Positions 15,539 to 61,200 of a stretch of 64,000 nt of DNA are shown piece after piece. The stretch comes from a virus. Lineage: Duplodnaviria > Caudoviricetes. A model generated the notes under the pieces. The model was not told the origin of the DNA and did no database searches. It saw only the letters and a program-made list of their open reading frames with translations. The position numbers and the translations under genes were made by a program. Positions within the stretch are counted from its first letter, which is position 1. Every line of letters begins with the position of its first letter. The DNA lies in IMG/VR virus record IMGVR_UViG_3300043443_000284, positions 439-64,438 of that record; one strand, 5' to 3'.

Positions 15539-17806
15539 TTAAAACATGCCAGATTCAACTGGCGGTTGCGCACCCAATTGTGGCAACATTTGTTGAGCCG
15601 GTTGTCCACCCTGTGGTGGCAACATGCTCATTTCATTACTAGGCATCGCTTGTTCTTTGCCTAATTCTGTAACTGCATAGTCTTCATTCTGCTGAGCTTC
15701 AATGCCAGCCTTGGCAGCTGCAAGTGAAATGTCTGCTTCCAGCTTGGCTTGAATAACTGCCTGTTGTTTCTGGATTTCGATCTGTGCCTTGGCTTGCTCA
15801 ATTTCTGGATTAAACTGCTCTTGCTTAGATTGTGCTTCCATCATGGCTTGCTGTTGTGCCATCTGGGCTTGCTGTTGTTGCATCATCTGCATCTTTTCGG
15901 CTTGCTGATCTAAGTGTTGATAGATACGTGACGCATTAGGTATATTCGCCAATTCAATGAACAACCTATTTGTGTCTGGATCCATTGGGTCACCAAATAC
16001 ACCCATCTGACGTAAGGCTACAAGTTTTTGCAACTTCTGGTCTGGGCTATCATCCATCGATGATCCGGGAATATATACAATGCGATATTGCCCACCAGAA
16101 CGCAGTGCGTCAAAACGCATAACACCTTGCCGTATTTGATCTTGAGGAAGCATCTTGCCTTGAATGTTTCCAACAAATGGAACAATAGCAAACTGCTCTA
16201 TCAGTGATACTTCCCATTCTTTGATGCGAGATGCACTAATCTCGATATCTGCTCGTATAAAACTGTGCTGCGTATTATCAGATCGCTGCAACAATCTTAC
16301 AGATTCAGCTGGCGTTCCTGCACTAGCTTGGCCTTGACTAACATCATGCAATCCAGCTACGTCCATCATGTCCTTCTCAAGCATTTGTAACAGTGGGAAT
16401 AGATCTGATCCGATGCCGGGTGCTCGTTGTATAGCAGGTGGATGACTACCACGCTTGTAATTAATGCGACGATAGATTCTATTCTTGTCATCAATGCTGT
16501 CACTTGTGTTGTCGTATGCATCAGCACCAACGCCACTTAAGTTCTCAACAAGGATGTAATCTTTTTGACTTTCAAATTGCTCAATTAATCGTGAATAAAC
16601 TCGATTGTACGTAAGCTGCAATGAACATAAGTCCCAACCTAGACTGTATCCATATGGAGTTCCACTACGTGGTTGCCATCGTAACGGAATGAACGGGAAC
16701 GTGTCTTTCTTCTTGTATGGCCAAATTCCTGCGTAAAGCAAACATGTGTTTGTGCTTACGATGTATCTACCGTCAGGGTAAATTGCAGTTGGTCGTTCCC
16801 AGTATTCATATACAACAGCTGCTTGCCGTTTAGTATCTTGGTTCGTTAAGTTTGCAGGAGATGGAGGCATCCACCCACGCCCGCTACCATTACTTCCGTC
16901 AATATACGCGTCAACATAACTACTGTTAGTACCAGACTGGCCATCAGCTTTAACTAACTTTCCATCTTCTCCATACTTATCAACAAACCATGACAATGGC
17001 TTGACCGACGCATGAATCATCCAGCGAATATCGGCATCGCGCTTTGCTGTTGGATCAAAATAAACATCAAATGCTGGAAGTATCTGCTCGACTACATCAC
17101 CAACCTTCATGGTTGTGTGTCCAATAATCTCTGTTCCTGATGCATCCATTTGCGGAACAACTTGTTCTTGACTTGCATCCCAGAATACTTTTAAGAATGA
17201 TGTGCCACTAACACATGCCCATCGAACACGTTCCTTAGTTTGTGTTTCTCTATCGAACTTCCTGTTGTAGTGATTAACAATGTAGTTGGCTTCATCGGCA
17301 GCCATTAAATCAACTGGGTTGTTACTAATCGGGACAGCATTGGAATCTGGTGCGCACTGAGTCAACTTACCAACAACGCCATCAATTAATGACCGCATTT
17401 TATTGACAGTCATATAGCGGTTTGGTTCGGACTCGTGCTGCAAACTTTCTAGATTACGAGCTTGGCTGTTTATGCGAAACCATTGACGACCTTCAAAGAA
17501 CGCCGTCGCCATAGCCCATTCAAGTTCCATCTCTTGTCGGGATCTATAAGCAAGATCAAATTGCTGCTTGATGAACGACGTGACTTTCTTAGCTTCTTCT
17601 GGTTGGTCTTTCGGAATGACACGCCAGTCTTTTGTGTTTAGGTCTAAGTTTAAATTTTTTGGATTATCTTTAGCGTCGCTTTTTAATGCAAAACTTCCGG
17701 GTGTTCCGTTGGCTGATGGTTTTTCAAAAGCAGAGACTCGTGGTTGTTGTCCCATTACAGATTTCGTTAATGCACTTCGCATTAAGTTATTAATGTCTAT
17801 AGACAT
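15539..17806 (-). CDS. Portal protein (P22-like with Gln-rich C-terminal barrel)
   Basis: FFEGRQW, TVNKMR..IDG.VG, G..FLKVFWD, PF..L, DVAGLHDVSQG, Q-rich tail; follows terL. Confidence 0.85.
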   Translation of the reverse strand: MSIDINNLMRSALTKSVMGQQPRVSAFEKPSANGTPGSFALKSDAKDNPKNLNLDLNTKDWRVIPKDQPEEAKKVTSFIKQQFDLAYRSRQEMELEWAMATAFFEGRQWFRINSQARNLESLQHESEPNRYMTVNKMRSLIDGVVGKLTQCAPDSNAVPISNNPVDLMAADEANYIVNHYNRKFDRETQTKERVRWACVSGTSFLKVFWDASQEQVVPQMDASGTEIIGHTTMKVGDVVEQILPAFDVYFDPTAKRDADIRWMIHASVKPLSWFVDKYGEDGKLVKADGQSGTNSSYVDAYIDGSNGSGRGWMPPSPANLTNQDTKRQAAVVYEYWERPTAIYPDGRYIVSTNTCLLYAGIWPYKKKDTFPFIPLRWQPRSGTPYGYSLGWDLCSLQLTYNRVYSRLIEQFESQKDYILVENLSGVGADAYDNTSDSIDDKNRIYRRINYKRGSHPPAIQRAPGIGSDLFPLLQMLEKDMMDVAGLHDVSQGQASAGTPAESVRLLQRSDNTQHSFIRADIEISASRIKEWEVSLIEQFAIVPFVGNIQGKMLPQDQIRQGVMRFDALRSGGQYRIVYIPGSSMDDSPDQKLQKLVALRQMGVFGDPMDPDTNRLFIELANIPNASRIYQHLDQQAEKMQMMQQQQAQMAQQQAMMEAQSKQEQFNPEIEQAKAQIEIQKQQAVIQAKLEADISLAAAKAGIEAQQNEDYAVTELGKEQAMPSNEMSMLPPQGGQPAQQMLPQLGAQPPVESGMF

Positions 17807-17808
17807 GA

Positions 17809-17961
17809 TTAGATCCACCTCTCATTTGAAACTATTTTCTGTACGAGTAATCGCTCATCACGTATAGCTCGCAAGTGATTTACGATGCCGTACATAAGTA
17901 ACGTTTGAGCCATCAAGCACAATGTCACAATAACACTACATATAACTAAACAGATAATCAT
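17809..17961 (-). CDS. Small single-pass membrane protein (50 aa)
   Basis: Manual translation MIICLVICSVIVTLCLMAQTLLMYGIVNHLRAIRDERLLVQKIVSNERWI; ATGA overlap with terL stop; below ORF-track cutoff. Confidence 0.55.
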   Translation of the reverse strand: MIICLVICSVIVTLCLMAQTLLMYGIVNHLRAIRDERLLVQKIVSNERWI

Positions 17962-19703
17962 ATCCAGTTATTATTTTCCTTTTTCTTTAACCACTTAGGA
18001 ACGTATCTTTCCGACGTAGGCATTTTATCTTCTAACTCAGGACATTTGATCGGATATTCACGCCACATTACTCCATACCTGAAGCTATCAATTGCGTGAT
18101 CGTTTTTAGTCCCGCTATCAATATCTTCTGGATCACGTGGATGAGCCATAGTTGCTGATAACTGTTTAATTAAATTAGGGCATGAGCCACGAACGATTCT
18201 TAGCTTTGGCGTTGGTGAACCATCAACTATGTCTGTGGCGGAAATCCATTCTTTAACCCGTCTCCAACCAGCTTTTCGGTCTTTAACAGCGCGGACTGCT
18301 GGTAGTCCACGCTCCCACCAGATTTCAACTGGGTATTCACCAATTCGTTCTTCAGCCTTCATTGGTGGGAATGTATTAGCCCAGTCAAATGCAATAGCTT
18401 CTAGTTTAGAATTCCATTGTCCATCTCTGACCTTGATGTTTACAGGAGACGCAAGCTTCTTACTCTCAAGTAGTTCTAAACATCGCTCGGCTTGTTTGCT
18501 GCTAACAAGACCTGATTCATACATTTCACCAATTACATAAACATTTTCTCTATCATCACTTGCATAGATAAGGAAGCATGCTGGAGCACCTGTACCAAAG
18601 TCATGACTAGCCCATACTCTCCACCAAGGCTGAATCTCAATGTGATCAACAACATGCCATGGTTTTCCATCAGAGTTGTATTCACGAAATTCAGGAAAGA
18701 ATAAACCACCTACACCAACCTCATGTTGACACTCTCTTAAAAAAGAAAGTATTCCGTAGGTATCAATTTCATGCTGGCATACTTCTATAGTCTTATGCTG
18801 CCACGTCGGTTTTCCGGCTACTATCTTGTAACCAACACGGCCATCATTACGTTCGTACGTTGTGTACTCAAGACCGTCTACAGCTGGTACTATCGGCGAT
18901 TGAATGCGATCTTGAAGCATATCTAGATCACCATTTAATACTTGTGACATTACAGAGTTAGCATGAATCCGGTTCTGAACAAAGACTACTGCGCAGTCCG
19001 TACTTTTAGCGGGGAGAATAGTCTGAGTGATTGTTCGTATCTTCTTATCTACTGCATTTACGGAGTCATCTAGTTCATCAATGTCGTCAAGAATAATCAT
19101 ATCCGGACGTAAGTGATCAAGTTTTACACCACGAGCACCAGTGTCTAATCCAAATGCTAAGACGTTAAATCCATTTGCAGTTCTTAATTTAGACGCACTC
19201 CACCCACGGCTAAAACCATACTTGTTAACGGCGCGTTCAATACCACATCGCTCCATTGCAGTAGCAATATCTTGCACGTGCCTATCAGCCATGTCTTGTG
19301 TAGCACATACATATACAGCAAAGCGACGAGTTGCCTTTACTGCCAAGCGACTGACAACAAGTTCCATTGTTGTACTTTTTCCACCACCACGAAACCAGCA
19401 TTCAATTAGCGCTGGGCCAAATTTACCCGGACTAATATTTTCTGCCCATTGCCATGCTCGATGATGATGCTCTCCAAGTGTTGATGATGCTGCATGAGGA
19501 GCATACACTTTGAGCCAATCTTCGTAATTTAGTTCATGTCCGGGTAATGCTGTTGCTAAACCACTATCAAAATCACCTAACTCTATGGCAGTATCTATCT
19601 CAGCAGACATTGCTTCAAGCAATGCAACGGCTAATGGCTTAGTTGGCCTAACAAACTTTTTTAAACTACGCGGTGTCAGGCGCGACGATACTTGATTCTT
19701 CAT
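17958..19703 (-). CDS. terL: Terminase large subunit
   Basis: Walker A (FRGGGKSTT), Walker B (IILDDIDE), RNase H-like nuclease (SHDFG...NDHAIDSFRY). Confidence 0.92.
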   Translation of the reverse strand: MKNQVSSRLTPRSLKKFVRPTKPLAVALLEAMSAEIDTAIELGDFDSGLATALPGHELNYEDWLKVYAPHAASSTLGEHHHRAWQWAENISPGKFGPALIECWFRGGGKSTTMELVVSRLAVKATRRFAVYVCATQDMADRHVQDIATAMERCGIERAVNKYGFSRGWSASKLRTANGFNVLAFGLDTGARGVKLDHLRPDMIILDDIDELDDSVNAVDKKIRTITQTILPAKSTDCAVVFVQNRIHANSVMSQVLNGDLDMLQDRIQSPIVPAVDGLEYTTYERNDGRVGYKIVAGKPTWQHKTIEVCQHEIDTYGILSFLRECQHEVGVGGLFFPEFREYNSDGKPWHVVDHIEIQPWWRVWASHDFGTGAPACFLIYASDDRENVYVIGEMYESGLVSSKQAERCLELLESKKLASPVNIKVRDGQWNSKLEAIAFDWANTFPPMKAEERIGEYPVEIWWERGLPAVRAVKDRKAGWRRVKEWISATDIVDGSPTPKLRIVRGSCPNLIKQLSATMAHPRDPEDIDSGTKNDHAIDSFRYGVMWREYPIKCPELEDKMPTSERYVPKWLKKKENNNWI

Positions 19704-32329: not shown

Positions 32330-32398
32330 GTAGCCGACGCTCCTTGCGTTCGCTACAGGGTGCGCAGGGTGTAGCGTATACACCTTGCGCGCCCTTTT
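32330..32398 (+). promoter_or_regulatory. Two-hairpin leader/attenuator-like structure before first early gene
   Basis: GTAGC..ACGC-TCCTT-GCGT..GCTAC, then 17-bp stem 32357-32373/32379-32395 with two G-U pairs, followed by T-rich tract. Confidence 0.55.
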
Positions 32399-32464
32399 GT
32401 CGTTTATACGCCTATTATCGTTGTTTCATTGATGTTTCTGTTAGTCACAAGGAGTTTAGTTACC

Positions 32465-32845
32465 ATGTCTACAATTCGCGCTGAGTTTATCAATGTCGTT
32501 TCCCTGTTAGAGTCTGAGTTTCCAGAGTCCAATATCTCTAACTGCTGTCGCAACATGTTGCGCAACGCTACTGCACCTGACCGCCCGGTGTCCAAGTGGC
32601 ATGTCGTCACCCGTCGTGGCAATGTCCCTGAGACTTGGGATGCCACCGTTGCTATCACTGACCTTCGTAACACGGTTGCCCTTGCGCATCGTGAAGGTTT
32701 CTTGGACGATGCTGGTTACAAGCAGTTTGAGATTGCCATCCACGAGTGGAAGGAAGACCTCAAGGTTGAGAAGGTTGAGGATGCCTTCGCTATCCTTCAG
32801 AAGTCCATCCGCCGGGATGCACGTCGGTTGGCTAAGGGGGGCTAG
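32465..32845 (+). CDS. First early protein, hypothetical
   Basis: AAGGAG SD before ATG 32465; own terminator downstream. Confidence 0.75.
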   Translation: MSTIRAEFINVVSLLESEFPESNISNCCRNMLRNATAPDRPVSKWHVVTRRGNVPETWDATVAITDLRNTVALAHREGFLDDAGYKQFEIAIHEWKEDLKVEKVEDAFAILQKSIRRDARRLAKGG

Positions 32846-32854
32846 TCCCCTTGA

Positions 32855-32889
32855 CCTACTCGGGACTCAATCCCGGGTAGGTTTTTTTA
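32855..32889 (+). terminator. Intrinsic terminator
   Basis: CCTACTCGGGA-CTCAA-TCCCGGGTAGG + T7. Confidence 0.85.
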
Positions 32890-32924
32890 TATCTATTTTT
32901 TTGAAAAACACAGGAGAAAAATAT

Positions 32925-33254
32925 ATGGCAGTTGTTATTACCCGGCATCTTGGTGCTGTTGATTGGTTGATTCGTCACGGGTTTATCAAGAACGACCCTA
33001 ACGAGGATTGTGTTATTGACCACGCTACTGAAGCAGATGTACGTGGACAGGTTGTATATGGCGTATTGCCATTACACCTTGCGAGTAAGGCAGCATGTGT
33101 ATGGAGTATTGATATTCCTAACCTGCCTGTGAATCGCAGGGGAACTGAGCTGAGCGCAGACGATATGGATGCGTTCGGTGCGCATTGCACACGCTATTAC
33201 GTGCAGTGTATTGAGACACGCACATCAGGTGCGTTCAAGGAGGAAAGCAAGTGA
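32925..33254 (+). CDS. csx16: Csx16-family (Cas_VVA1548-like) protein, candidate cyclic-oligoadenylate ring nuclease
   Basis: AGGAG SD; 109 aa; TRHLGAVDWL, VYGVLPLHLA, RRGTELSADDM..G.....YYV match Csx16 motifs recognised by eye. Confidence 0.8.
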   Translation: MAVVITRHLGAVDWLIRHGFIKNDPNEDCVIDHATEADVRGQVVYGVLPLHLASKAACVWSIDIPNLPVNRRGTELSADDMDAFGAHCTRYYVQCIETRTSGAFKEESK

Positions 33255-33457
33255 AGACACGCAAGTATTGGGCCGATGATCGGTCACGGTTGGATGATGA
33301 CCAACAGGACTTGGATGACGCGACTGCTGTTATTGCAGCCCTATCGGGTTGTGATGACGATAATGTCCCGACATCACAAGCGAGCGGGAGTTTGCGTGGT
33401 GTTTGGGTTCGCTCAAACGATGACGCTATCTTGCGCAGGTTTCGTCGTATTCGCTGA
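33251..33457 (+). CDS. Hypothetical acidic protein (68 aa)
   Basis: GTG start overlapping csx16 stop, AGGAGG SD; followed by terminator. Confidence 0.45.
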   Translation: MKTRKYWADDRSRLDDDQQDLDDATAVIAALSGCDDDNVPTSQASGSLRGVWVRSNDDAILRRFRRIR

Positions 33458-33475
33458 GGAAATGAAGCGATGTAT

Positions 33476-33506
33476 CCCCACTGGAGTAATCTGGTGGGGT
33501 TTTTTT
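33476..33506 (+). terminator. Intrinsic terminator
   Basis: CCCCACTGGA-GTAA-TCTGGTGGGG + T7. Confidence 0.85.
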
Positions 33507-33519
33507 ATGGGAGTTTAAT

Positions 33520-33711
33520 ATGAAGATCAAGATGACAACAGCTGAGAAAGCTTACGTAGTTATGGGCTTTGTTGCCCTCATGCTCGCAGGGTTTGCGATG
33601 TACCAACAGAGCTTAGTTCAGGCAGCTGAGTTTCGTGCTCACATTGCTGAAGAACTGTTGGAGAAATCACAGGACGCTTTGGTCAATCAAGAAGTAACGG
33701 CAGGTAAGTAA
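33520..33711 (+). CDS. Small membrane-anchored protein
   Basis: GGGAG SD; hydrophobic YVVMGFVALMLAGFAMY followed by coiled coil. Confidence 0.7.
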   Translation: MKIKMTTAEKAYVVMGFVALMLAGFAMYQQSLVQAAEFRAHIAEELLEKSQDALVNQEVTAGK

Positions 33712-33899
33712 TGAAGACACTGGCATATAGCGGATGGCGCGTAGTTAACGGCAAGCGCCGTTGGGTGACGGTTGAGTTTCTTGGCGGTCACTTGTTTGAG
33801 TTTCGTGTTGGTTGGTTCTTTCCAGCCAAGACACAAGCAGTATGGTTGTGCAACGGACGCTTCAATGATTTCGTTGACGCAACACTCACTTGGATGTAA
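33711..33899 (+). CDS. Hypothetical protein
   Basis: TAATG coupling; followed by terminator. Confidence 0.6.
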   Translation: MKTLAYSGWRVVNGKRRWVTVEFLGGHLFEFRVGWFFPAKTQAVWLCNGRFNDFVDATLTWM

Positions 33900-33909
33900 T
33901 GCGGTAATC

Positions 33910-33937
33910 GGAGGGGCGCAAGCCCCTCCATTTTTTT
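33910..33937 (+). terminator. Intrinsic terminator
   Basis: GGAGGGGC-GCAA-GCCCCTCC-A-T7. Confidence 0.9.
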
Positions 33938-34577: not shown

Positions 34578-34607
34578 TTGAATAATACTCAATGTAATAC
34601 TTATAAT
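34578..34607 (+). promoter_or_regulatory. Sigma70-type promoter (TTGAAT-N18-TATAAT) with palindrome ATGTAATACTT in spacer
   Basis: -35 at 34578-34583, -10 at 34602-34607, box at 34592-34602. Confidence 0.7.
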
Positions 34608-36526: not shown

Positions 36527-36781
36527 ATGAGATTTAAATATGAAGTTCTTTATGGGAGCTTAGTTATTGAAGCGCTCCTTAAAGAGAAATTGATTACAAA
36601 AGATCATTACGATCATATGTGGGAAGTATTTGTCGATCGAGGTAATGAATTGACATATACATTGATTGATTTAGCTGATGTTTTAATTAATCTTGAGCAA
36701 GTTGATTGCGAAATGATTGTTAATTACATGACAGCCAACCATAACTTAATTGAGTTTTACACCACTAAGCTCGCTATCTAA
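36527..36781 (+). CDS. Hypothetical acidic protein
   Basis: Abuts upstream stop; AGGA SD. Confidence 0.6.
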   Translation: MRFKYEVLYGSLVIEALLKEKLITKDHYDHMWEVFVDRGNELTYTLIDLADVLINLEQVDCEMIVNYMTANHNLIEFYTTKLAI

Positions 36782-36787
36782 TGTTTG

Positions 36788-36837
36788 TGTGAGGGGTGCG
36801 TCTCACTAACAACGCATAGAAAAGAAACACAATCATC
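36788..36837 (+). repeat. Intergenic direct repeat copy 1 (pseudoknot-like leader)
   Basis: TGTGAGGGGTGCGTCTCACTAACAACGCA identical to 37338-37366, then A-rich leader. Confidence 0.92.
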
Positions 36838-37332
36838 ATGTCTACAGTTAACCTTTACACAAACTACTTCTCTGACCGCGTTGTTGCTAACCACGAGCGT
36901 TTGCTTGCTGGCACGCTTGGAGCGTACGAATACTACGAGTCTTTATGTCACGATGTACATATGAATATCAACGACAGTCGGTTCAAGGTCGTTTACAAGC
37001 TGCGCATTGACATTGCTGACAAAGAGAGTGTCGCATTACCTAAGCCAAAGGTAACCGTCGAGGTTACATTTGAAGCATATGAAAATGAAGATGTATCAAT
37101 CTGCTCACCATCTGCTAGTAAGACGATTAAGTATAACGTCACTATTACAACGGAAGAAATTACTGAGCAGGTGAAAGAGGCTATTGATAAGTACCGAGAA
37201 CTTATCAATGACTATCCTATGCCTCATCTTGACTTTGACTTCTGGACTCAGACTGCTAAGTTAATGAAGCAGTTTGATAAGAATGGTGCATCGACAGCAC
37301 GTGACAACTCAGACTTCCTTGAGTTGATCTAG
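36838..37332 (+). CDS. Hypothetical protein
   Basis: 164 aa between repeat copies 1 and 2; no SD. Confidence 0.75.
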   Translation: MSTVNLYTNYFSDRVVANHERLLAGTLGAYEYYESLCHDVHMNINDSRFKVVYKLRIDIADKESVALPKPKVTVEVTFEAYENEDVSICSPSASKTIKYNVTITTEEITEQVKEAIDKYRELINDYPMPHLDFDFWTQTAKLMKQFDKNGASTARDNSDFLELI

Positions 37333-37337
37333 ATTTA

Positions 37338-37381
37338 TGTGAGGGGTGCGTCTCACTAACAACGCACAGAAATAGAACACA
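37338..37381 (+). repeat. Intergenic direct repeat copy 2 (pseudoknot-like leader)
   Basis: 29-nt identity to copy 1; 3' 25 nt (to ATG) identical to 37686-37710. Confidence 0.92.
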
Positions 37382-37684
37382 ATGAATAAAACAACATGGT
37401 ATCAACGCAAAATCAGCCTTGATGACGGGACAGTGATATCCATCATCTGTACTGAAGACATAAGTTATGGTCATGCCGACAAACTGTTTGAGTGTGCATT
37501 AGTTGCACCAGATGGCAGCATAGATGACGAAAAACTCAAGGGCTACCTAGATTTTGATCAAGTAGCAGAATACATAAAAAACGCGAAGAAACAACACAAT
37601 GAGCAGGTAACCGAAACATTAAAACCGACAGAAAAATCACGAGGGACATATATATTTGGAGTGACTAATTACAAGGATTATTAA
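37382..37684 (+). CDS. Hypothetical protein
   Basis: ISII......SYG..D.LFE.A pattern seen in phage early proteins; no SD. Confidence 0.7.
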   Translation: MNKTTWYQRKISLDDGTVISIICTEDISYGHADKLFECALVAPDGSIDDEKLKGYLDFDQVAEYIKNAKKQHNEQVTETLKPTEKSRGTYIFGVTNYKDY

Positions 37685-37685
37685 T

Positions 37686-37707
37686 CAACGCACAGAAATA
37701 GAACACA
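37686..37707 (+). repeat. Intergenic direct repeat copy 3 (3' half only)
   Basis: CAACGCACAGAAATAGAACACA identical to 37360-37381. Confidence 0.9.
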
Positions 37708-37926
37708 ATGACTGACGAACAAAAGAAACATCGTTACTATAACTGGGTTCGTGAACAAAGATGTCTTAGTCTAATGCTTGGCAAAACGTGGGAAGAGCCA
37801 GTTAAAGAAGATGGTACCGATGAAGATGACATCAATATCTTATGGAATTTCTATACCAGTACCATCAAACGTCAATTGGATGAACTCGTAATTAAACTTA
37901 CAGAGTTAGAAAGAAAAACACAATGA
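37708..37926 (+). CDS. Hypothetical protein (weak paralog of 35365-35577)
   Basis: 72 aa after repeat copy 3. Confidence 0.65.
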   Translation: MTDEQKKHRYYNWVREQRCLSLMLGKTWEEPVKEDGTDEDDINILWNFYTSTIKRQLDELVIKLTELERKTQ

Positions 37927-48463: not shown

Positions 48464-49228
48464 ATAGACTTTCTTTTGGTCACTATTGGCGATGCAATCA
48501 AGATTAAAACTACGAGCAAGATCTCTGATTGCTGCATACGATTTACCATCTCGTAGAATGCATTGAACGGCCAGTGGCTCACCATTGAGTACTGGCCCAT
48601 CTTCCCAAGCCAATACAATATTGTCCCCAGCGACAAGCCGAACAAAGTCACGCACAGGCGCGTATGTCCTTCCGTTCTGCAATAAGGCAACAATGTGGTT
48701 GTCTCCATATACAATCTTCCAATCCTGCCCAGTTTGAATCAATGACCAAGGTCTAATGAATCGAACAATATCCCTATTGCGATTTCCATACAATGATCTA
48801 TGGGCTACTTCATATCCATTGCGACTGCCATCATTGTTGCTGTTTCCCTCAATGGATTTCCAAACACCTTCCTCATCTTTGCCTTCAACAATTCCAATGT
48901 GAAATGCATCTTGTCGTCCATTCTTTAAGGTCTTGACCAAGATAACTAAATCACCAGCCATCGGAGTTGTATGCAATACACCGTGTTTTTTAGCAACAGC
49001 TAACCAGACATCGCAGTCTGCACTAAAACACAATGGCCAATCCAATCCACTTTTGTTTTCCCACTCAGCAGCAATGCCACTTACGAATGATGCGCACCAA
49101 TAACTACCAATAGGCGCATTAACTAATGTGTTCCATCTGTCGATCATTGGTCCACAGTTACTACCTACAGGTTGCTCTAAGACACCGATGTATTTCTGTG
49201 CTGTTGTTATAAAAATACTTGCGCTCAT
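48446..49228 (-). CDS. Endolysin: CHAP peptidase plus C-terminal stalk-like (copper amine oxidase N-terminal-like) domain
   Basis: YWCASFV, FHIGIV, SIEGNS catalytic motifs; NGRTYAPVRD and DGKSYAAIRDL repeats. Confidence 0.85.
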   Translation of the reverse strand: MSASIFITTAQKYIGVLEQPVGSNCGPMIDRWNTLVNAPIGSYWCASFVSGIAAEWENKSGLDWPLCFSADCDVWLAVAKKHGVLHTTPMAGDLVILVKTLKNGRQDAFHIGIVEGKDEEGVWKSIEGNSNNDGSRNGYEVAHRSLYGNRNRDIVRFIRPWSLIQTGQDWKIVYGDNHIVALLQNGRTYAPVRDFVRLVAGDNIVLAWEDGPVLNGEPLAVQCILRDGKSYAAIRDLARSFNLDCIANSDQKKVYLKKTI

Positions 49229-52200
49229 TTATCCATCTTCTCCCGACCTCTACGATACATATCGCTCATTTGCTCTAGAGTCATCTCAGGTATTGTCACC
49301 TTGCCCTTTTTCTCCTTCATGGATTCCCTTAAACGTTCACTGCGTTCAGTAGATGAATCAATCACAGCCTGTGTAGGTAATCCGGGTCTTCTTACTGGCT
49401 GCTTACTTTCCCATCCATCTCCACCAATATCTCCACTACCGGGTATACCCTCAAAGAGACTCCATAATCCGTACTGGCTAATCATGTCAAACATGTTTGG
49501 ATAATCGTATTGCTGAGTCTTCATCTCGTTAGACAACTCACCTATGGTTATGCCTCCAGATTTCAAACTTGGAATCTGCTTTTGAATCATAACGTTAGAA
49601 TAGTTATTTTCTACACCAAACATACGACCCGCCATTGAAAGTCCGACGTTGTACTGTGCATTTGGTTGATATTCCATAAGCTCAATATCTTGCATTAACT
49701 TTTGAATTGGCAAAATCTCTTGCTCAATAGCAAACCTACTGGCACCACGAGGATACATCTTCTGCAGTCTAAAAAGATCTAAAGAATAAATACCAGCACG
49801 CTGTAAGTAGTAATTTGGATTCTGTAAGAACCGATAGAACCCCGGATGCTGTTGATAAAGAGCTGTGTTGTTAAACGTACGTCCAGTCATCTGATTCCAT
49901 GCGCCAGAATACATAGCGTTAACACGGCTTGTGACTTCGGTTCTAAGTATCGTTTCAGCTATAGCTCGAGCAGGACTTTCGCCATCGTTAATTTTTTGCT
50001 GAACGTAATCAAGTGGGGCCAGTACAAATCTATGTAGTCCCATAATGATAGGAGGTGCCTGAACCTGCATGTTACCTAAAGTAATAACTTTTCCAAATTT
50101 AGATGACTTCAGTAACTCTTGCTGCTCTACACCAGCATTCATTTCATCCATTAACTGTGCAATTTTTGCAACTTCATACCACTCAGTTGGTTTACCCTGC
50201 GCAGCCAGAAGCGCACGCTCTTGAATATTTGTTTGCATTGCTGCAAATAACCATCCAAGTGCAGCAACCTGCCCAAACGCAGCAGCCTTTCGTTGCAGGT
50301 CAAATAGCGCTGGAGTCTTAGAAGTAATCCCTCCCGGCGTCGTAAACGTACTGATTGCCCGAATGTAGTTATGGTAAGCGCCTACATTTAATGTGTTGTA
50401 CTCCGCACCATTAAATACTTTTCTCCAAACAGGACGTAACAGTGAGTTGATTCCATGTGCTAATCCAAGCTCAATCATCATTGGCAAGTATGTAACTGCC
50501 TTTAATGACTTACCCCAGTTAGGAGCAGTATAAACAGATGCTAACTTGTATCCTAAATCTCTAGCAACAGGATGGACGTTAGGGTCTTCACCAACTGGCG
50601 TTCCGGATATCGTGTTGATAATACGCGCAAATTCTCGCTTAGATCTTTCAGCTTCGTAATAAGCAGACTTTTCACTTGATGCACCAGAACGTAAGTAGTC
50701 AAATATACGCCTATCAATAACACGCGATATCTCTAGGAATTGCTTGATGCGTAAAATGTCAGTAGACATAACACCACCGCGCTCCATCATTCCAACAAAT
50801 GGAATAACTCTCTGCGCTAAAACGCCAGTACCCAAGTTCTCTGCACCTGTTAACTGTATAGGGGTGTCATACAGTGTCATCAAAGGATTCTGTGCTTGAG
50901 CAGCAGCTGCTGTTTCGTACCATTCTCCATAGGTTGTTGCTAAGCCCATGTTGTTTAAGTCTTCAATGGTATATGACTGGTGTTTATTAGCTTCCCTGTC
51001 GTAGAACCCACCAACTGTAGCCCTATGAATACCGGGGATGCCATATCCAATAACACTACCCTTGCGTCCATACTTGTCAAACAAACCTGAAATAATTTTG
51101 TGATACTGCATGTCTCCGAGTGCAACATTTTTATGATGTCCAAACATCTTGCCTAGAACACCAGCACTGTGGTTACTGCCATGCGGGAACCAAAGATTTG
51201 GGAACATGCCCAACAATCCATAGAACTGCATTGCTGTGTTCTTTGGGTTCATGGCTGTAAGCATGAAGTTCTGAATCATAGGTCTGGCAAAGTCTCGGCT
51301 TAACCGCTTTGCTGTTTCTAAACCACTTAACTCAGTCCATCCGTTTAATACAGTTCTCCAGAATGGTGCGTCTTTAGGTAGCGTGTTTAACGGCATTGAC
51401 GCTCCACCGTTTTCAGGAACCTCACTTAAAAGCGTTGTGACTGATGGGTCGGAACTAAACAGTACATTCAACGTCTCAGTAAACTTACTACTTGGAATAG
51501 TGACATGAACATCACTACCATCTACTGCAATACCAACTTGATCGTTATCTGTGTGACGCTTGAATACAATGTTCTTTGGTTCACCTATGTCATTCATCTT
51601 CTCTTGAATGAGTTCATATCTTTGTTGCTTCCATTCATTAGCGAGGCGTTGGTCATTGTCGGCTAATGGAGGCTGCTCTGGTAGATTGCGGAGTAAATCC
51701 ATCTCGTAATCGCTGAATGGTTTTCCGCTCTCAGATGGTAATTCACCTGAAGACAACCACGTGCCTTTACGTGAATTATTTACAAGCACTGACTGAAGTA
51801 CGTCGTACGTCTCATCGCCGACATTAGCAATAGCCTTCTTAATGCGGAAGTTATCCTTCATTCCATCCTTCCATGCTTGTGGTATAGATTGAGGATTCTC
51901 TCGTTGCGCCCTAGCAACAAGCATCTTGGCTACGTAAATCTCTGGCTGAATAATTGATGTCTTACGAATGCGTTCAATCGCACTGTAGTTATCTGGTGTT
52001 GCACTATCAAAATATCGTTGCGTAGCAAGCCACATCAATTTAGACGGACTCTGACGCATCACTCTTTGATTATTGACATACGTCATGTCTTCTGGGCCAT
52101 CACCTGAAATATGGTAACCAGAGTATGGATTAACGATTTTGTCTACGGAAAAATGAATGCCAGTTTTAGCAGCAGTCTTTGGATTCTCCTTATTAATCCT

Positions 52201-55200
52201 ATAGAAATACATGCCGTCTGGTGCATTAGGATTAGTCACATCCTTTGTGCGCATAATGACAATGCCACTTTTACTAATCCTGTACTGTTCCTGCTCAATG
52301 GGTGTCATTGAATTGACTAGCATGTCTTCCTGTTGAATAGGCATGCCAATCTTCTTGCCATCCTGATCACGTTCTGCAACTTGCGCTACAAATGGAACCT
52401 CTGCATCAGGGTTAAATAATGGATATCGACTACTATGAACATCTGCCTTAAATACATGGCCAGCTCGCAAGTGGTCAACACCGATGTTTTGTACGTGGTT
52501 CTTATGGAAATCCACCTGCATCATTCGTCCAGATGGATCCATAATGCGAACCTTTCCATTATCAGCAAATGCAGAAGATGGTAAAGAGTATTGATTCCAC
52601 TTGTACTTAGCCGTGTTGATTTGCCGTTCTTGTAAATCAAGAATGTGGCTAGTAGCCATTGCAAGCTGCATTGCACGTTCGCGTTCATTTGAATCAGGAC
52701 TTGCAAGACGTTGCATAAATTCCCATTTACCAACAACGTTATCTCGTCCAAAGATTACGTCAGTTACACGATTTAGGACATAACCGGCACTATTAGTCTG
52801 GTATGCATCCAATGGCATTGATAAGTTTTGATTCAGTTCAATACCTTTAATCATCTCGGATATGGTGGTGTAACCCATGAATGGATCACTTGTACCGACG
52901 CCGGATGCTTGCATTACTGACTGTAGTAACGGAACAACATCTGTGACTGCGCCGTTGTACATTGCGTCAGTTGTCAACTGAAATTGTTCATCAACATCAG
53001 CGTTGAATGTTGAAATGAAATCACTAACCCGATCCTGTAATGCAACTTTATTTGATCGTGCCTCGCCACGAGTTAATGGCCGTGGGTTAACAGCATTGTA
53101 AATATCCATATACAACGCTTCGATGCCTTGATCAATAAAGTCACTGACTCCCTCTGGTGCAACGTTAGCCTTAATTGCCTTATTCCGTAAAGCATCAGTC
53201 ACCTTCTGGTGAAATCCGCGCAACGCTTCGTAGTCTGGCATTCCGGGGCGCATTTCAAAAGCTGATCCCTCAGCATTTAATTCACCAAATCTAAAACTAC
53301 GTAGAGAGTTCCTAAATAATCGCTGACTGTCAATGTATTTAGCTAATGGGTTGACAGCGAATTGGTTTAGGTCATCAATGAACATTGCACCTTCTTCAGT
53401 GTATGTACCATCTGTACCTATTAATCTCTTTGCACGCATAAGACCAAGCAACTCGTTTTCAAAACTTGATCTACCTGTAGTCATGTTTGCATACATGTCT
53501 ACACCAGCTGCTCTAACATCCTTGCCTTGGTCAGACCAGTATGCGGCGATTCTGTCTTTAGGGTCTACCCCTTGACGCATATCTGTACGGAAATCTTCTG
53601 GAGTGCCTGTGACAATATGCTTCTCAAACTTTAACTGGTCTTGGTATGAGTGATAATTAGACACAGCGCGAGTCACAGTGTCAATTTTTCTGTTTAAGTC
53701 ATACAACACAGCAGAGAATTTAGGATTGTAATCACCTGTAAATCCAAGTAGTTGAGGATTGTATTCTGAATTTGTTAAAGAATCAGCTGAAACAATCCAT
53801 CGTGCATTGGTTTGATAACTACTTGATGTACCCTTGCGGTTTGGTTCATACATCGTGACTTCAACTGGTGCTTCTAATACAAAGTAACTATCAACTGCGG
53901 GGACAGTCGTGTAGCCATCAGCAGTTTTTTCCAAACGCGATTTAAAGAAACCGCTATCATGTACGCCATCGTTGTCCTTCATGCTTGCAAATGAGAATGT
54001 CTTTCCTCCCATTTGATATGCAAAGATAGTCGGCTGTTGGTCGGTTCCAGCAGTCTTTAAAACAACTTGATCTACAATGCGACCATTAAATCTTTGTCCC
54101 CAGATAGTTCGATCCGTATTCATTTCGGTACGGTCTCTGCCAATAGGGTTTACATAAAACGCAACTTTACGACCCTTGGCTAAGCGACCTGCAATATCAG
54201 ACAGTGCTCTTTCATTGTCAATTGGAGCATTAACCTGATGTGTCACTGTCTGCCCATCAAGTGTGAAAGTTGCTTTAGATTTAAAACCAAACTTATGAGT
54301 AGTACTATTTGTGGCAACTCCGGTGGTAGTCCACATAGTCAATAAGTCAGGCAAGTTGAACATGTCATGTCGTGAAGTTGTTAACTTAGTTTCATTTGGG
54401 ATGACTAAGCGGACATAATCTCCCTGCCGTACCTGTGGATAATCAATACCGCGCCCACGCCCAGTGGTGTATTTAGCAACTGGAACATTAGATGCCCATG
54501 ACCTGTATGGCTTTCCATTACGAATCACAATGTCAGGTTGGTTAGCCCTAGACAATTGATGCCACATACTTCTGATTGGGCCAGCAACCTGTTGAAAGAT
54601 TGCAGCAGCATCCGTGTCCATTGCGGAAGATGCATCCATTGATGTTGGCTCGCTAAAGTCAGTAATGAAATTCTGTAAAGCAGTGGCAAATAATTCGTGG
54701 CCACTGTTGTACCAGTCAGACTGCATTACAGAGATGCGCTCATCTGACATTCCTTCTTTACGCCAGAACTCAACAACGGAAGGGTCACGCCACATATCCT
54801 GTAAGCCAACTCCGCGTTTACCCGGGTTAGCAGCATCATAAATGTCGATAGCCTTTAACTGTAATACGACAGGATACAAAGGGTTTGTTTTAGCAGTGGC
54901 ATCTGCGATGTCGTCAAATTGTGGGACTAGTGACCTTAAGAACTTAACTTGATTGGTGTCATCAAGCGCAGTAAACAAACTGTGAGTCATTTCGTGGAAT
55001 AAAGTATCAGCAGTACGTGGGCCATTAGCGTCCGAGCTAAGCATCATTAATCTTTGCGTTGCTAAGAATGCTCCATGTACTAACTTCCCGCCTTGTGCTG
55101 TTATCATCTGCGCATTAGATTTAGACATCAAGTCACTTGATGTCATCATTAACTTGCCAGCATGTAAGTAGTAATTAACGCGACCCTTAGCAATTAAGTA

Positions 55201-58200
55201 CGTTGCTAACGCAGTTTGTTGCTCATTGGTCATGAATTGCCGTGCTACCTCACCACGAGTCAATCCACGCTCTTGACCTTCAGATAATATCTGGTCAAGC
55301 GAACCTGCTTTTCCCTTAAAGTAATTTACTACCCGTGTGTCAACACCAACCTTAACCATCGCGTCAGCAACAATTGCTCTATGCTCAGGCAAAGATGATG
55401 TAAGCAACATTGCATACTGTTGTTTTCCGTAACCATATGCAAAGTTGTCATATGTCTTTGCTAATCCAGCAGATAGCTCACGTGCTGCTCCAATGAATTG
55501 CCTGTCCCGCTCAACCTTCGCAGCCTTTTCTTGGTACTGGCTACGTTGTAAATAAATATTTTTGATGCGCTCTATTGATTCCTGAGTCGTTCGACCATAA
55601 CGATCCATATCTATCTTGGAATACATCTTGTAAAGCTGCTCTGCTGTTGCAGGTGTCATTGCAGCTAGACCATCTGCTGTAGGTTCAGAAAGGATAGATG
55701 GTAAGTTTTTCGGATGCAAGAACGATACATAGTATTCACTATTGATATCGGACGACAGTGCAGATATTGCGGTGGCAATTTGATATGGAGTATCTACATA
55801 ACCGTCTGCATGCGAATACGTTGTCCCCAATAAATCTGGCTTATTGAAGACATCTAAGACAGCCGTCTCTGAAAAAGCCATGATCATTTGAGCACGAATG
55901 TCTGGGTCAATACGCGCTTTATCAATTGTTCGTGCGACTGTATTAGATAGATCTGCTACTAGTGTATTAACATCGCTATATGCACTTGCATTCGCAAGTA
56001 TGGCATCAATCTCAGGGAGGATGTTATTTAATGATCGACGTGCTCCTGATGGGACTTCAAGACTCTTAATAAGTTGCTCTGTAGCCAATCGCAATCGAGG
56101 TGCCCACAATGTTTGAGCGGTATTAACTAAGTGGTCGTTGTCAAAAAATGATTGTTCTCCCAGCGCACCAGTTCGCTGAGGTTTATACGCACCATTAGAC
56201 ATAACGCCACGTTGCGTGTTTACCGATTCTCCAAGGTCCGCGACGGCTTCGTCAGTAGATTCAAAATCAAACTGGCGTAGTAACAATGACTCAAGTAGCG
56301 TACGCATGCCTTCATAGTTACGCGCATGTAATGAATATAACTTCACGCGCTTCGAGTCTGGAATAGTAGATGTTGCCATACCGTCAAATGCAACATCATC
56401 TACGAGGTCACTTTCCATTGCCTGAATACTAATGACTGGCGTTGGATCAAGGAATGCAGCCATATCTAAATCAATGGCATCGCGATCAAACATTAAATCC
56501 GCTTCACCAATAGTTGGATCAGCACTGAGTGCGTCATGATTCAAATCATCGATTGAACGCAAGTGCTCACTGATTTCTTTGCGCCCATTAAGAGCATTCA
56601 TCGTTAACCCAGTAAGCGTAATTGTTCCAGCTTCAATGTCTTCCGTTATTTCAATAGGCGCACTTGCTTGTCGCAATGCTTGGACATCGTCACTGATATT
56701 ACGAGTACGACTATATTCACGAGACACATCGCTAAGAACGTTGTTCTTAATCTGAGTAATCTTTTGTGGCCCAGTGAAAATATCCTTAGAAATAAGGCCT
56801 AGCATTTCAGCTGACATATTTCCAATGATTGTTAAGCTGTCAGCCATAGATGCCGGGTCAGACAAATCAATGATATTTGGCAACTCAGCGGAAACATACT
56901 CATTGAATGCGGTTAATGCGTCTGAAAAAGGAGTGATTGTGTTTGTCTTATTAGTAGTAGTAGCTAATGTATCTCCTTCAATTCGCTTAATTAAATTATC
57001 GTAATACTTAGATACGCCTAATTGAAACTGCTCAGACTTACCAGATTGCACAGCCTGTTTTAAAGCAGCTTCCTTCTCTTGATTTAGTTTCTTCTTGTAA
57101 GCCTCAAGTTCTTTTGGAGCTAAATCTGATAACTGTTGAGCAGATGACTGAGCTACATCAGCCACACCCTCTTCTGATGCTTGTTTAACAACACGCGCAC
57201 CACTTCTACTACCAGCTAAATCAAACGTCCCAAATGACTCAGTATAAATACTTCCAGAAGCAAAGTAGTCATTCTGGTAGTCATCAAATGCATTACGTAA
57301 AACGTCATAAACAGACCTAAGTTCTGTAGTATCAACTTTAAGTATTGATTCATAGGTGTCTACAAGATCGCCTACTACATCTAACACTTTGATTAATGAG
57401 CGATATGCAGAATTAAATGCCTGTTGTTTTGCACCAGCTAACTCACTAGATAACCGATTAACTTCAGCATCATTCTTTGCGGTTAATGCCTGATTTAACT
57501 GATCCTGTATAGTACGCACGCCATAGTGGTCTTCCCACCGTGCAACATGGCTTGTTAATTGTGGTGCATCTTCAAATGTAAAGTGACCAAGCGCTCGTGC
57601 TAACTGAGTTACAGCAAAACCAGACCGTAATTTTTCGTATGCAGATCGTCGTGCAAGTTCAGTAATGTCGTAACTAGCCATAGTTTCGTTACGAGCAACA
57701 GTAGCAAGAGTCGGATCATTCTCAAAATCGGCAGCCATATCTTCTTGGATTTTGGCAACATCATCTTCACTTAACGCCTGATCAATAATCATTTGCGCAG
57801 CGCGGTCAATTGTCTGTTGATATTGAACCAATCCCAAATCATTAGCAGAGCCGTCGCTTAGTAATGTGTACTCGACGTTACCAGTAATGTTAGATGGTCT
57901 GTAGGCAGAAATATTAGCAAGTTGCTCAGGACTCATATCCTGAATTTGCCCACGTAAATTATTCAATGCCGTCAATAAATCTGTTTTGGCTTGTGTGTCA
58001 ATAAGTTCAGAGTTTGCAACACTGCGAACGATATCTTCACCAAACCTTGCAATGACTTGAATAAACGACACTTGGTTAGTCTGATGGACTGTTGACTCAT
58101 CAACATAACCCATGAAGTCACCAGAGCTAATGTCAGATTCAATTGCTTTTAAAACAATCGTAGGGATGGCTTCATTCGATACGTATGTATTTAACTTACG

Positions 58201-61200
58201 CTGCCAGTCACGATATGCATTAGCGTCTTCGTTGATTGACTTGACAATATTTGCACGGCGTTGTTCAGTAGCTGCGTACCATAAAAACTCTAGCCCTAAA
58301 TCTGATAAAGCAGCTTTCGTTTCAAATGGGTCTTGGGTTGCTATCTTTTTCTGAACGGTCATAACGGCTTGCTTATAAGCACGCTCACTCGTCCAGAACC
58401 TAGATAGGATTGGATCAAATCCAGCACTTGTTATTAAAGATAGGCCAGTCGGATCGGACGTAACAGCAATTGCCCTACCAAGAAACACTTGCATTTCGGG
58501 TGAAGCGCCAGCAAGTGTGCGCATCTGCCACATATTGTCAGCATGGTATGCAGCATGAGGCGCTATTCCACGTAGTTGGTATGCATAAGCAATAGCGTCA
58601 CGTCGTGTTGCTGGAGTATCAATTACGTTTAATGATTTAACGGCTTGAGCATAAAGAGCGTCTGGAGTACGAATTGAATTACTGCGGTATGCAAGTATGT
58701 TCATTCTCCTAGCAATAGCATGCGCAGTTGACCGACTCTGAATTGACTGGGCACTAAGTAATGCTCCAGATTTACCAAGAGACATTAATCCATCAAGGTA
58801 ATAAAGCTGCTCCATAAAACCGGAATCACCATAGAGGTCAGCCACACGTACAAGATAGTTATATACGGTTGTCCCCGGTTTGATAGCGTCATCGTAAACG
58901 CCAACGACTGCGTCGAAAACAGCCTCAACATTTTGATTAGCAGCAGCCCATGAGATTAATCCAAGTTTGACATCACCACTAAACGCATTACCAGATTTAA
59001 CAACATCTAATAATATTCCCGGCAGTTCTTCTGCTGTGGCGCCTTCTATACGCGTCCTCTGGTTTTTTGATGAACGTAATGCCATGTACGTGTTGAACTC
59101 TTCTTCATCAGTGAGAGTTCTAGTCCAAGGCCTGTGATACGGAACGTCATCAGTTGGCCTAAAGTTGTCGAGTCTTGTTTGCAATTCGCCTCGATCAGCT
59201 TGAGATTCAATAATGACATTGTCAACAGGAACTGTGTAAGCGTCACCAGTTGGGTCAGACAACAAACGAACAGTTACTAAATTGTTATCCGACTTAATGA
59301 CAATTGCTTTTTCTAAATCAGATTCCGTAGTAAATGCACCTGATACTAAATCACCTACCTGTACATCAACGTCGTTAATCAAATCACCGCTTACTGGATC
59401 CATACGCATTGCTTGGCGCGTTCCAGCAACATTCAAAGCGTAATCTTCAGCAACAATATTACGAATGGTCTGTGCTTTTTCTTCTAAAGTCCCACCACCA
59501 TCCAAGACTGTTTCCAATAAGTCTAAAACCTCTAAAGACACTGGAACCCTAGCTGGTAAGCCAGTGTCGTGGATATCCATGCGGATATAGCCAATTTGTG
59601 AGTCAACTGCAATACGTGCATCTTTAATCGTCTGTGTATTTGCAGTATCTGGTGACTGCTCTAATTGACGAGCACTTAATGGAGTCTTGGTCTGAACCCT
59701 TGCTTGCTCAGCCGACAAAGGCTGCATATATACAGTTCCGTCTGGCAACTGATAGATACCCATAGGCTGAGTTCCACCAGCAGTCTCAATGAGACGTCCA
59801 TTTACAAAGCGCACTTGACCATCTTCGGATGTAAACGGAACCTTATCCGGAAAGTCTTGGCTTTCAGTAAAGTCCAACAGTTCTTTACCGGCTTCAGACT
59901 CAGTTGTTGTATTTAGGATAGTTAAAATTGGGCGCAAAGTGTCAAGTAATCGTAGGTTGTTTGCTGATAGATCCCTCATTAAATCTACTGCGCCAACATT
60001 TTCTACACTGACATTTCCCTCGCGTGTTCTCGTCTTAAGCATGATTTGTCCACCGGGATTAAAACCTGCAATAGATTTTGTTTTCCCACCGGAAGACCAT
60101 CTGTTTCGCGAGTTGAACGGGTTAAAAATATCGAGCCTAGAAGATAAGGCTTTTACTAATTGCTCTGCCGTGTAGAATGCTGACTTCCTATTTACGGTAG
60201 GTTGATCCAAAAAGATTAAATCGGAAGTATCTTCATCACCACGAACAATTTCTTGAGACCTAAATGTATAACCATCAGGCCCGCGATGTGGATTAAATGC
60301 TAGATATTGCGGGACTCCGTCGGCAGCATCTTCGATACGCACAGCAAAGAACTGCTGTTGTTGTGATCGAGGTGCAACAGTCCTCTGTTGGGCTTGTTGC
60401 TCCGGTGTGCCAGTCGCTGGCTCAACTGGCTTTTCGGTTGGTTGCTGACTTGCCTTCATTGCGTCCAACATTCGTTTTTCAATGTGTGGAGTTAATTCGG
60501 CAATTGCACGACTCTTTGCTTTTGGATCTACGACAAAGATGTTTTCATTTATGCGTTGTTGTAATAACGGATTGTTGTCAGATAATGGAGCCTTGTCTCC
60601 CTTGACGCGCATAGATGTAACTAACTTATTAAATTGCTCTTGCAGTGGAGCGTCGTCAAGCGCACGGCCAGTAAGTAGTTTTTGGAAGAATACTTCAGCA
60701 GCATGCGTAGGAAGAACTTCACCAGAAATAACTGCTTGGCGAGCTGGTTCTGCAATCATTTCATATGCAGCACTAACAACACGCTTAACGTCATCTGGGT
60801 TGGCGTCTTTTCCAGTAAGTTGCTTAAAGCGTTGTTGAACAACATCGCTTCTCCACCCACCAGAATCAACCCAGTCACGGGCAACTAACGTTGCTTCCGT
60901 TTTAATATCTGACCCTTGACCCAATACTTTGCCACGCAAAGCCGGAGTCATAAATGCAGATAACTTTCCTGCCGGTCTCACAGCAGTAAACGTCAGTAAT
61001 GCTGCGCGACCAATGTCAGACATAGTCGGCAACTTGTAGGCTTTCTCGCCAGTCTCAGTTAGTGTTTGATCAGTAATTGCCCGATAGGTCTGAGCAATAG
61101 GTTCAAATGCGTTGTTAATTCCAAATGCAGCATCTGGGCCAACGCTACCAATAAGTTCGGTCTTCTCACGCAACAGCCGATCTCCAGCATTAAGGAATCG

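Follow-up and report, generated by a model that had tools for sequence, protein, structure and literature searches.

The question raised by this locus is why two nearly identical copies of a short repeat stand between tightly packed small genes of a phage, and whether what is conserved there is an RNA fold or a DNA signal. The source is an IMG/VR phage record of 64,438 bp that is rated 97% complete, and the stretch analyzed here (64,000 nucleotides, hereafter the window) covers nearly the whole of it. A first-pass annotation had read the repeat as an H-type RNA pseudoknot followed by an A-rich leader without a Shine-Dalgarno (SD) sequence, and had proposed that it serves as a portable element for SD-independent initiation, exonuclease blocking or coordinated control. 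In what follows, we examine the fold, the distribution and the position of the element, and weigh the functions that it could have.

Copies of the repeat and their setting in the phage genome

The window is organized as follows:

1 to 31.8 kb, minus strand: structural genes
15539-17818, minus strand: portal gene
17958-19703, minus strand: TerL
32.6 to 48.5 kb, plus strand: small-gene block of about 40 tightly packed genes, the last of which is DnaB
49225-62673, minus strand: ORF of 4482 aa

Searches of Pfam, PHROG and PDB sequences gave no match for the 4482-aa ORF. Comparison of the window with 50,697 deposited phage genomes by blastn yielded zero matches, and the nearest TerL among those records was only 26-31% identical. 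Vibrio phage CHOED, examined as a cultured relative, was without the element, and nothing was found when the portal protein was queried against bacterial genomes for host identification. Two side observations were made in the early region. First, a 217-aa early protein (32601-33254, plus strand) matched Cas_VVA1548 (Csx16, PF09652) with E = 1.3e-17. Second, the head of the plus-strand early cluster (32357-33929, plus strand) carries four strong intrinsic-terminator-like hairpins with U tracts, at 32357, 32853, 33476 and 33910, and a near-consensus sigma-70 promoter comes next (34578-34607).

The 29-mer occurred exactly twice in the window, both times on the plus strand, where 0 occurrences were expected by chance. 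Both copies were as the first-pass annotation had described them, one ending in U and the other in C, and this difference preserves pairing (G-U vs G-C). The features around them are:

36779-36781, plus strand: TAA stop codon of the upstream 84-aa gene (36527-36781), 7 nt before the first knot
36789-36817, plus strand: pseudoknot copy 1, with S1 GUGAG(G)/(U)CUCAC, L1 G(G), S2 GUGCG/CGCAU and L3 UAACAA
36818-36837, plus strand: A-rich, unstructured, weak-SD leader of the 164-aa gene, with ATG at 36838
36838-37332, plus strand: 164-aa gene between the two knots, no PHROG match
37339-37367, plus strand: pseudoknot copy 2, as copy 1 except for S2 GUGCG/CGCAC, all Watson-Crick
37368-37381, plus strand: A-rich, weak-SD leader of the 100-aa gene, with ATG at 37382
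37382-37684, plus strand: 100-aa gene, in a slot occupied by different genes in related phages
37680-37707, plus strand: degenerate third copy, leader only, ahead of a 72-aa gene (37708-37926)

Including the leader, the repeat unit is 50 nt long with 90% identity between the copies. The two knots scored almost equally with the covariance model, copy 1 (in which S2 has a terminal G-U pair) at 64.1 bits and copy 2 at 64.3 bits. The gaps that contain them measure 56 and 49 nt, amid a cluster of mostly overlapping or nearly abutting genes. The third copy scored 14.9 bits with 21 model positions skipped: its leader, CAACGCACAGAAATAGAACACA, is an exact match to that of copy 2, and the 21-nt hairpin part, GTGAGGGGTGCGTCTCACTAA, is missing. 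With regard to the genes themselves, the family of the 164-aa gene is the commonest one downstream of the knot in related phages, and homologues of the gene at 37708 belong to a family whose 15 members in related loci are preceded by the knot. A descriptor scan for further knots of the same shape in the window found none above shuffled background.

Distribution of the knot among phages

Beyond the window, at least 40 related IMG/VR contigs carried the element, each with 1-4 copies and with every copy on the coding strand, and the exact 23-mer core was found in 26 IMG/VR contigs besides that of the window. A covariance-model search across phage genomes had been proposed by the first-pass annotation; with looser patterns and the covariance model R1, 2-4 copies were recovered in all 14 near-complete related genomes (60-67 kb). 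Within each such genome, the copies all lay on the strand of the genes and fell inside a stretch of about 5 kb. The core was constant across related loci, and the flanks on both sides had diverged.

The knot was not confined to relatives of the window phage. At least three other phage lineages carry it, none of which has a detectable protein in common with the window phage, and the carriers included a complete phage of 37 kb (G019). When the ORFs of G019, L064/L066/L067, L115, L097 and L089 were compared with those of the window by blastp, no match was obtained (E < 1e-4). The knot precedes at least 13 gene families, which are unrelated to one another, and follows at least 10; in the slot after the second knot, gene content differs between otherwise syntenic genomes. 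The portability supposed earlier is thus borne out, both by the range of downstream genes and by the carriers without a shared detectable protein.

Three variants of the element were observed in addition. First, GC-rich carriers have S1 CGCAG/CUGCG (L115:382-410 and 3671-3699, L097:1857-1885, and L089 on the minus strand). Their contigs are short, are binned as Gammaproteobacteria, Anaerolineae and Woesearchaeota MAGs, and are probably mis-binned phage DNA. Second, a knot with a short L3 (GAA or AUA) begins 5 nt past a TGA stop codon at L080:49-86, L081:332-368 and L037:4835-4872 (minus strand). A strong SD, GGAG or AGGAGG, comes immediately after it, ahead of a conserved gene whose product starts MAAK. 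In several related genomes this short-L3 knot lies about 3 kb upstream of the main knot cluster; no counterpart of it was found in the window. Third, a knot 8-12 nt after the stop codon is combined with a tRNA-like cloverleaf at L064:7588-7700, L066:2249-2360 and L067:2546-2655. The cloverleaf, beyond the knot, has a 6-bp acceptor-like stem and a canonical T arm (loop UUCGAUU), with compensatory changes in some of its pairs; it was called in these three contigs by neither ARAGORN nor Rfam.

Sequence comparison points to an RNA pseudoknot

Pairing statistics were obtained over 60 distinct sequences. S1 was paired in 100% of them, with compensating changes on both sides in four of the five core pairs and 0 unpaired. 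Nine S1 variants were found in all, the ninth of which came from a separate search: GUGAG/CUCAC, CUGAG/CUCAG, GCGUG/CACGU, AGGAG/CUCCU, GGCAG/CUGCC, ACGAG/CUCGU, GCGAG/CUCGU, CCGAG/CUCGG and CGCAG/CUGCG. S2 (GUGCG/CGCAC) was paired in every one of the 60 sequences as well. Its outer pair varied, being G-C in 37, A-U in 12, G-U in 11 and A·C in 0, and its other four pairs were invariant, also across unrelated phages, as was L1. As a control, sliding the 3' partner by 1-3 columns left only 18-59% of cells paired.

The invariance of S2 must be read with some caution, because the searches behind the alignments, by pattern and by model, prescribed parts of S2, and it is thus partly an artefact of the search. 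However, one of the patterns (pattern A) left both S2 arms free, yet retrieved this S2 only; its other matches, which had different loops, showed no S2 pairing and were about as many as expected by chance. Furthermore, the two stems have no nucleotides in common and each is stable alone (-7.2 and -4.5 kcal/mol). The G-U pairs are found on the sense strand only, since the opposite strand would have A·C mismatches. Taken together, strong covariation in S1, one covarying pair and no mispairs in S2, and the strand-specific G-U pairs speak for the proposed H-type RNA pseudoknot, for which the support from sequence comparison is good in S1 and moderate in S2.

The details of the earlier parse needed some revision. 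S1 and the core of S2 were as described, whereas a sixth S2 pair (U13-A24) was broken in 10 of 43 distinct sequences. Position 13 pairs instead with G6 in 50 of the 60 sequences (G-U in 42, G-C in 8), which lengthens S1. A better parse is therefore S1 of 5-6 bp, L1 of 1-2 nt, S2 of 5 bp and L3 UAACAA (6 nt). Across the sequences, L3 reads YRA(C/A/U)AA, and it is 3 nt long in the short-L3 class.

These data also bear on whether the block acts as DNA. It would then be an operator or a promoter, the latter either with T3/T7-like CTCACTAA as its core or as an N4-type hairpin that the 4482-aa protein reads, and the polymerase would be of phage or virion origin. The first-pass annotation had listed action as DNA among the cases that would overturn its reading. 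A sharply bounded block of 30 nt with diverged flanks, intergenic and co-oriented with the genes, is what such a signal could look like, and the giant ORF is without a Pfam, PHROG or PDB-sequence match. However, the CTCAC arm is swapped for CTCAG, CACGT, CTCCT, CTGCC, CTCGT, CTCGG or CTGCG and the opposite arm always matches, S2 covaries, G-U pairs occur on the sense strand only, the element is present in unrelated phages that share no proteins, and there is no reason for a promoter to lie 5-8 nt past stop codons. The covariation thus contradicts promoter or operator action, and we regard a DNA-level signal as extremely improbable. Particular candidates were rejected on similar grounds. The T7/T3-like promoter was discarded as its core covaries away, and the likeness of CTCACTAA to T3/T7 promoters is coincidental, given that this is the arm that covaries. 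The N4-type hairpin promoter was discarded because of the sense-strand G-U pairs and the carriers without the 4482-aa protein. A search of the genome with PF00940 gave no match, but the controls of the same search were silent too. Finally, a scan for a sigma-70 promoter or an intrinsic terminator showed neither consensus at the element.

A purely recombinational role was considered in the same light. A block of 30-50 nt could act as a hotspot or selfish repeat that mediates cassette swaps in co-infecting phages and has little function in expression. The different genes after the second knot in otherwise syntenic genomes, and the occurrence of an identical leader with and without the knot, would be expected from such a process, for which the PeSL cassettes of T4 are the closest parallel. 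Yet spread by homology leaves the compensatory changes and the strand-specific G-U pairs unexplained, and it does not account for the same fold with different flanks in unrelated phages, which makes this explanation of the element improbable.

No known family could be assigned. Rfam 15 gave no match at gathering thresholds on the window, and none at E <= 10 on either 1.1 kb or 66 nt; because the motif is absent from Rfam, it is currently missed by phage genome annotation. Two other candidates were also set aside. For a mimic of CRISPR repeats (an RNA anti-CRISPR), a scan of genome contigs gave 89 matches, about the chance number, four of which had S1 pairing, on three short contigs (two on one of them) and outside arrays. 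An AUG-UGA mini-ORF that overlaps S1 is absent from the other S1 variants.

The pattern of conservation does resemble that of an aptamer, in that S1 is free to covary and unrelated phages show no variation in L1, S2 or the end of L3, and both the size and the H-type geometry are near those of the preQ1-I riboswitch. It is conceivable that the knot is a regulatory RNA of the preQ1-I kind that senses a ligand or a host protein, with the invariant loop and S2 bases as its pocket. On the other hand, preQ1-I (RF00522) was not matched even at the permissive Rfam threshold on the 66-nt query, and the base corresponding to its ligand-pairing C can be U, C or A. The genes downstream do not share a function, and the knot leaves both the SD and the start codon unsequestered, at a variable distance. 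Hence, a sensor of this type seems rather improbable as well.

The knot is tied to the upstream stop codon

The position of the knot was analyzed in 89 distinct contexts. In 84 of them, unrelated phages included, it started 5-8 nt after the stop codon of the upstream gene. The distance to the next start codon ranged from 6 to 28 nt (41 nt in L115), and the spacing from stop to knot is thus much tighter than that from knot to start. The window copies, which begin 7 and 6 nt past the stop codon of the preceding gene (the latter being the TAG at 37330-37332), conform to this rule, a relationship that the first-pass annotation had missed. The upstream stop codon was UAA in 53 of the 89 contexts.

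Considering the known footprint of the ribosome, we infer that, with the stop codon in the A site and a spacer of 5-8 nt, S1 would have its first pair around +12 to +15, where the mRNA enters the ribosome; therefore, a terminating ribosome should leave the knot folded. It should be mentioned that the tight spacing could also be mere genome compaction.

The same spacing raises the possibility of recoding, in which the knot would drive readthrough or frameshifting at the upstream stop codon. Recoding signals classically lie 5-8 nt beyond the A-site codon, as the knot does, and coremin-type knots, to which we return below, stimulate -1 frameshifting in vitro (PMC10321173). However, the predominance of UAA, the least leaky stop codon, is not what such a role would lead one to expect, and no common slippery heptamer was seen in the listed upstream sequences. 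In addition, the spacer varies by 1-3 nt, so that the frame is not kept, and no conserved extension ORF is possible, as the downstream leaders and genes differ. Recoding is thus very improbable here.

Leaders and translation signals downstream of the knot

In the window, the start codons at 36838 and 37382 follow their knots by 20 and 14 nt, and the SD-antiSD duplex energies of the two leaders are -0.9 and +0.2 kcal/mol, compared with a median of -5.3 kcal/mol for 29 other plus-strand genes. A similar tendency was observed in the main phage group as a whole, where the median SD pairing after the knot was -2.4 vs -5.3 kcal/mol for other plus-strand genes. The 28 nt downstream of the knot had a median folding energy of 0 kcal/mol (background, -2.3 kcal/mol), with 83% of the values at or above -1 kcal/mol, and the first 16 nt after the knot were 56% A in this group vs 32% in the background. 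Folding energy and A content therefore agree with the unstructured A-rich tract that had been noted after the knot.

The absence of an SD, in contrast, holds only in part: the SD is weak in the main phage group, but elsewhere it is strong, with AGGAGG, GGAG or AAAGGAG directly 3' of the knot in GC-rich carriers and in the short-L3 class. In the three contigs with a cloverleaf (L064, L066 and L067), 5 nt separate the knot from the tRNA-like RNA, and a start codon is absent.

These features are relevant to the function that the first-pass annotation had put foremost, namely that the knot and its A-rich leader form a translation-initiation module, which would recruit the 30S subunit by way of ribosomal protein S1 or a standby site, or would be the operator of a regulator, and so provide coordinated expression of small early genes independent of SDs. 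Several observations are in line with such a module. The leaders after the knot in the phage group of the window are unstructured, rich in A and weak in SD; knot and leader were duplicated jointly as a 50-nt unit; the sequences of L1 and S2 do not change from lineage to lineage, which is what a specific binding partner predicts; and, judged by eye, the knot resembles PK1 of E. coli tmRNA, which also has an SD-less A-rich tract and a resume codon downstream. On the other hand, it is the distance to the stop codon that is fixed, whereas that to the start codon is variable. Moreover, strong SDs follow directly after the same knot in other lineages, three contigs have a tRNA-like RNA rather than a start codon at this place, the third copy in the window has the leader and the gene without the knot, and no phage protein is common to the carriers that could be a shared regulator. 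SD-independent initiation is thus unlikely to be the core function of the element, and we consider the broader translation module unlikely too, although it is the strongest of the alternatives.

A proposed roadblock or insulator at gene boundaries

In all contexts, a folded knot comes shortly after a stop codon, and the next RNA unit, be it a gene with a weak SD, a gene with a strong SD or a tRNA-like RNA, lies just beyond it. For this reason, we tentatively favor the idea that the element is a portable roadblock or insulator at gene boundaries of the polycistronic early mRNA, an activity that is predicted from sequence patterns and that we hold to be nearly an even prospect.

The proposed mechanism is as follows. 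A compact knot at the cistron boundary, just outside the footprint of the terminating ribosome, would be expected to stay folded during translation of the upstream gene. If the A-rich leader were cleaved, the knot would form a cap that protects the upstream message at its 3' end from 3' exonucleases, a variant of the exonuclease blocking already put forward by the first-pass annotation. The knot might also hinder nucleases that scan from a 5' end as well as ribosomes that enter the next unit, and could prevent a weak-SD leader from pairing with upstream coding RNA. In combination, these effects would allow small accessory gene cassettes to be expressed alike wherever recombination places them. 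In the phage group of the window, the knot joined to its A-rich, weak-SD leader would then constitute a portable expression cassette.

Several points argue against this boundary role or limit it. The invariant L1 and the four invariant S2 pairs point to a partner (a protein, the ribosome or a ligand) that recognizes the sequence itself, which weakens a purely mechanical role, since mechanics need no such recognition; the invariant core hints at a conserved host partner and in this way keeps both the translation module and the sensor alive. A knot of 5 + 5 bp may be too weak against processive bacterial nucleases. The weak-SD, A-rich leaders in the phage group of the window fit a role in translation equally well. 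In addition, the third junction in the window lost the knot and kept the gene.

Should the knot prove to block nucleases or ribosomes, bacterial operons would have in it a minimal natural insulator, useful in the design of synthetic operons. It would also bear on the stability of long early phage transcripts and on the context-free expression of newly acquired accessory or anti-defence genes. With 29 nt, the motif is short enough for direct reporter testing of stem mutants.

Comparison with known systems

The system first invoked for this element was the leader knot of gene 32 in T4, T2 and RB69. In both cases, a phage mRNA leader has an H-type knot and, beyond it, an unstructured tract rich in A/U and then the start codon. 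However, the gene 32 knot serves one autoregulated gene, on whose mRNA it nucleates binding of the gene's own product. The knot described here, unlike that of gene 32, is near the start codon, is tied to the upstream stop codon, and has at least 13 unrelated genes, and also a tRNA-like RNA, downstream of it. Autoregulation of the gene 32 kind is at odds with so many different downstream genes and with unrelated carriers that share no protein.

The second comparison is with PK1 of E. coli tmRNA (ssrA, locus L180), which we parsed by eye as S1 CGAGG/CCUCG, L1 G, S2 GCGGU/GCCGC and L3 UAAAAA. The layout of the phage knot is close to this, and PK1 then leads into an A-rich single strand and the SD-less resume codon. 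Unlike the phage knot, PK1 has a 3-nt L2. No tmRNA was detected by ARAGORN or Rfam in the related loci or by Rfam in the window, and no tRNA-like domain or tag frame was found; the similarity may reflect only the common geometry of H-type knots.

Third, T4-type PeSLs consist of a sigma-70 promoter and a stem-loop, and are mobile regulatory cassettes. The phage element is like them in being a short conserved intergenic block that brackets variable small early genes and probably promotes the shuffling of cassettes. It is unlike them in that no promoter consensus is present at the element and its conserved part is a covarying RNA knot.

With respect to roadblocks, no title or abstract on an element of this type came up when the literature was searched for bacteriophage pseudoknots that resist exoribonucleases. 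Such RNAs are known from eukaryotic viruses: coremin (xrRNA-C) and its Watson-Crick variant xrRNA-WCC occur in plant, fungal and insect RNA viruses (PMC6546385, PMC10520033, PMC10321173), and small pseudoknots of the coremin type stall both Xrn1 and scanning ribosomes (PMC10321173, PMC10520033). Coremin has been reported from intergenic positions as well (PMC6546385, PMC10520033, PMC10321173), and its hairpin 1 has 3-5 bp and a YGAD or YGNNAD loop (PMC6546385, PMC10520033). The phage knot is larger than coremin and differs from it in several respects. Its loop is G(G)GUGCG(N), of 6-8 nt with G as the first base, and thus does not conform to YGAD or YGNNAD. S2 has 5 bp, compared with 3 bp in coremin, and the spacer sequence is different. 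The hp2 that coremin requires for Xrn1 resistance is absent, the RNA downstream of the phage knot being unstructured. Lastly, the hosts of the phage knot are bacteria. To our knowledge, many bacteria are without an Xrn1-like enzyme.

The likeness to coremin lies in the architecture and in the role. Both are very small H-type knots with an L1 of one G and a 6-nt A-rich loop, and in both this loop ends in AA just before the C that pairs with the last G of the loop-side S2 arm. The role as a roadblock is known for coremin and proposed for the phage knot. By analogy, the knot could be the bacterial-phage counterpart of the eukaryotic viral xrRNAs, that is, a directional roadblock just beyond the terminating ribosome, with a GGGRUGCG/ACGCAY core that would contact a conserved host factor. 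We consider this more specific proposal doubtful, more so than the boundary role in general. If it were correct, the knot would halt host decay (scanning by RNase E, and exonucleases) together with stray ribosomes at cistron boundaries, and each accessory gene would become a self-contained and swappable expression cassette.
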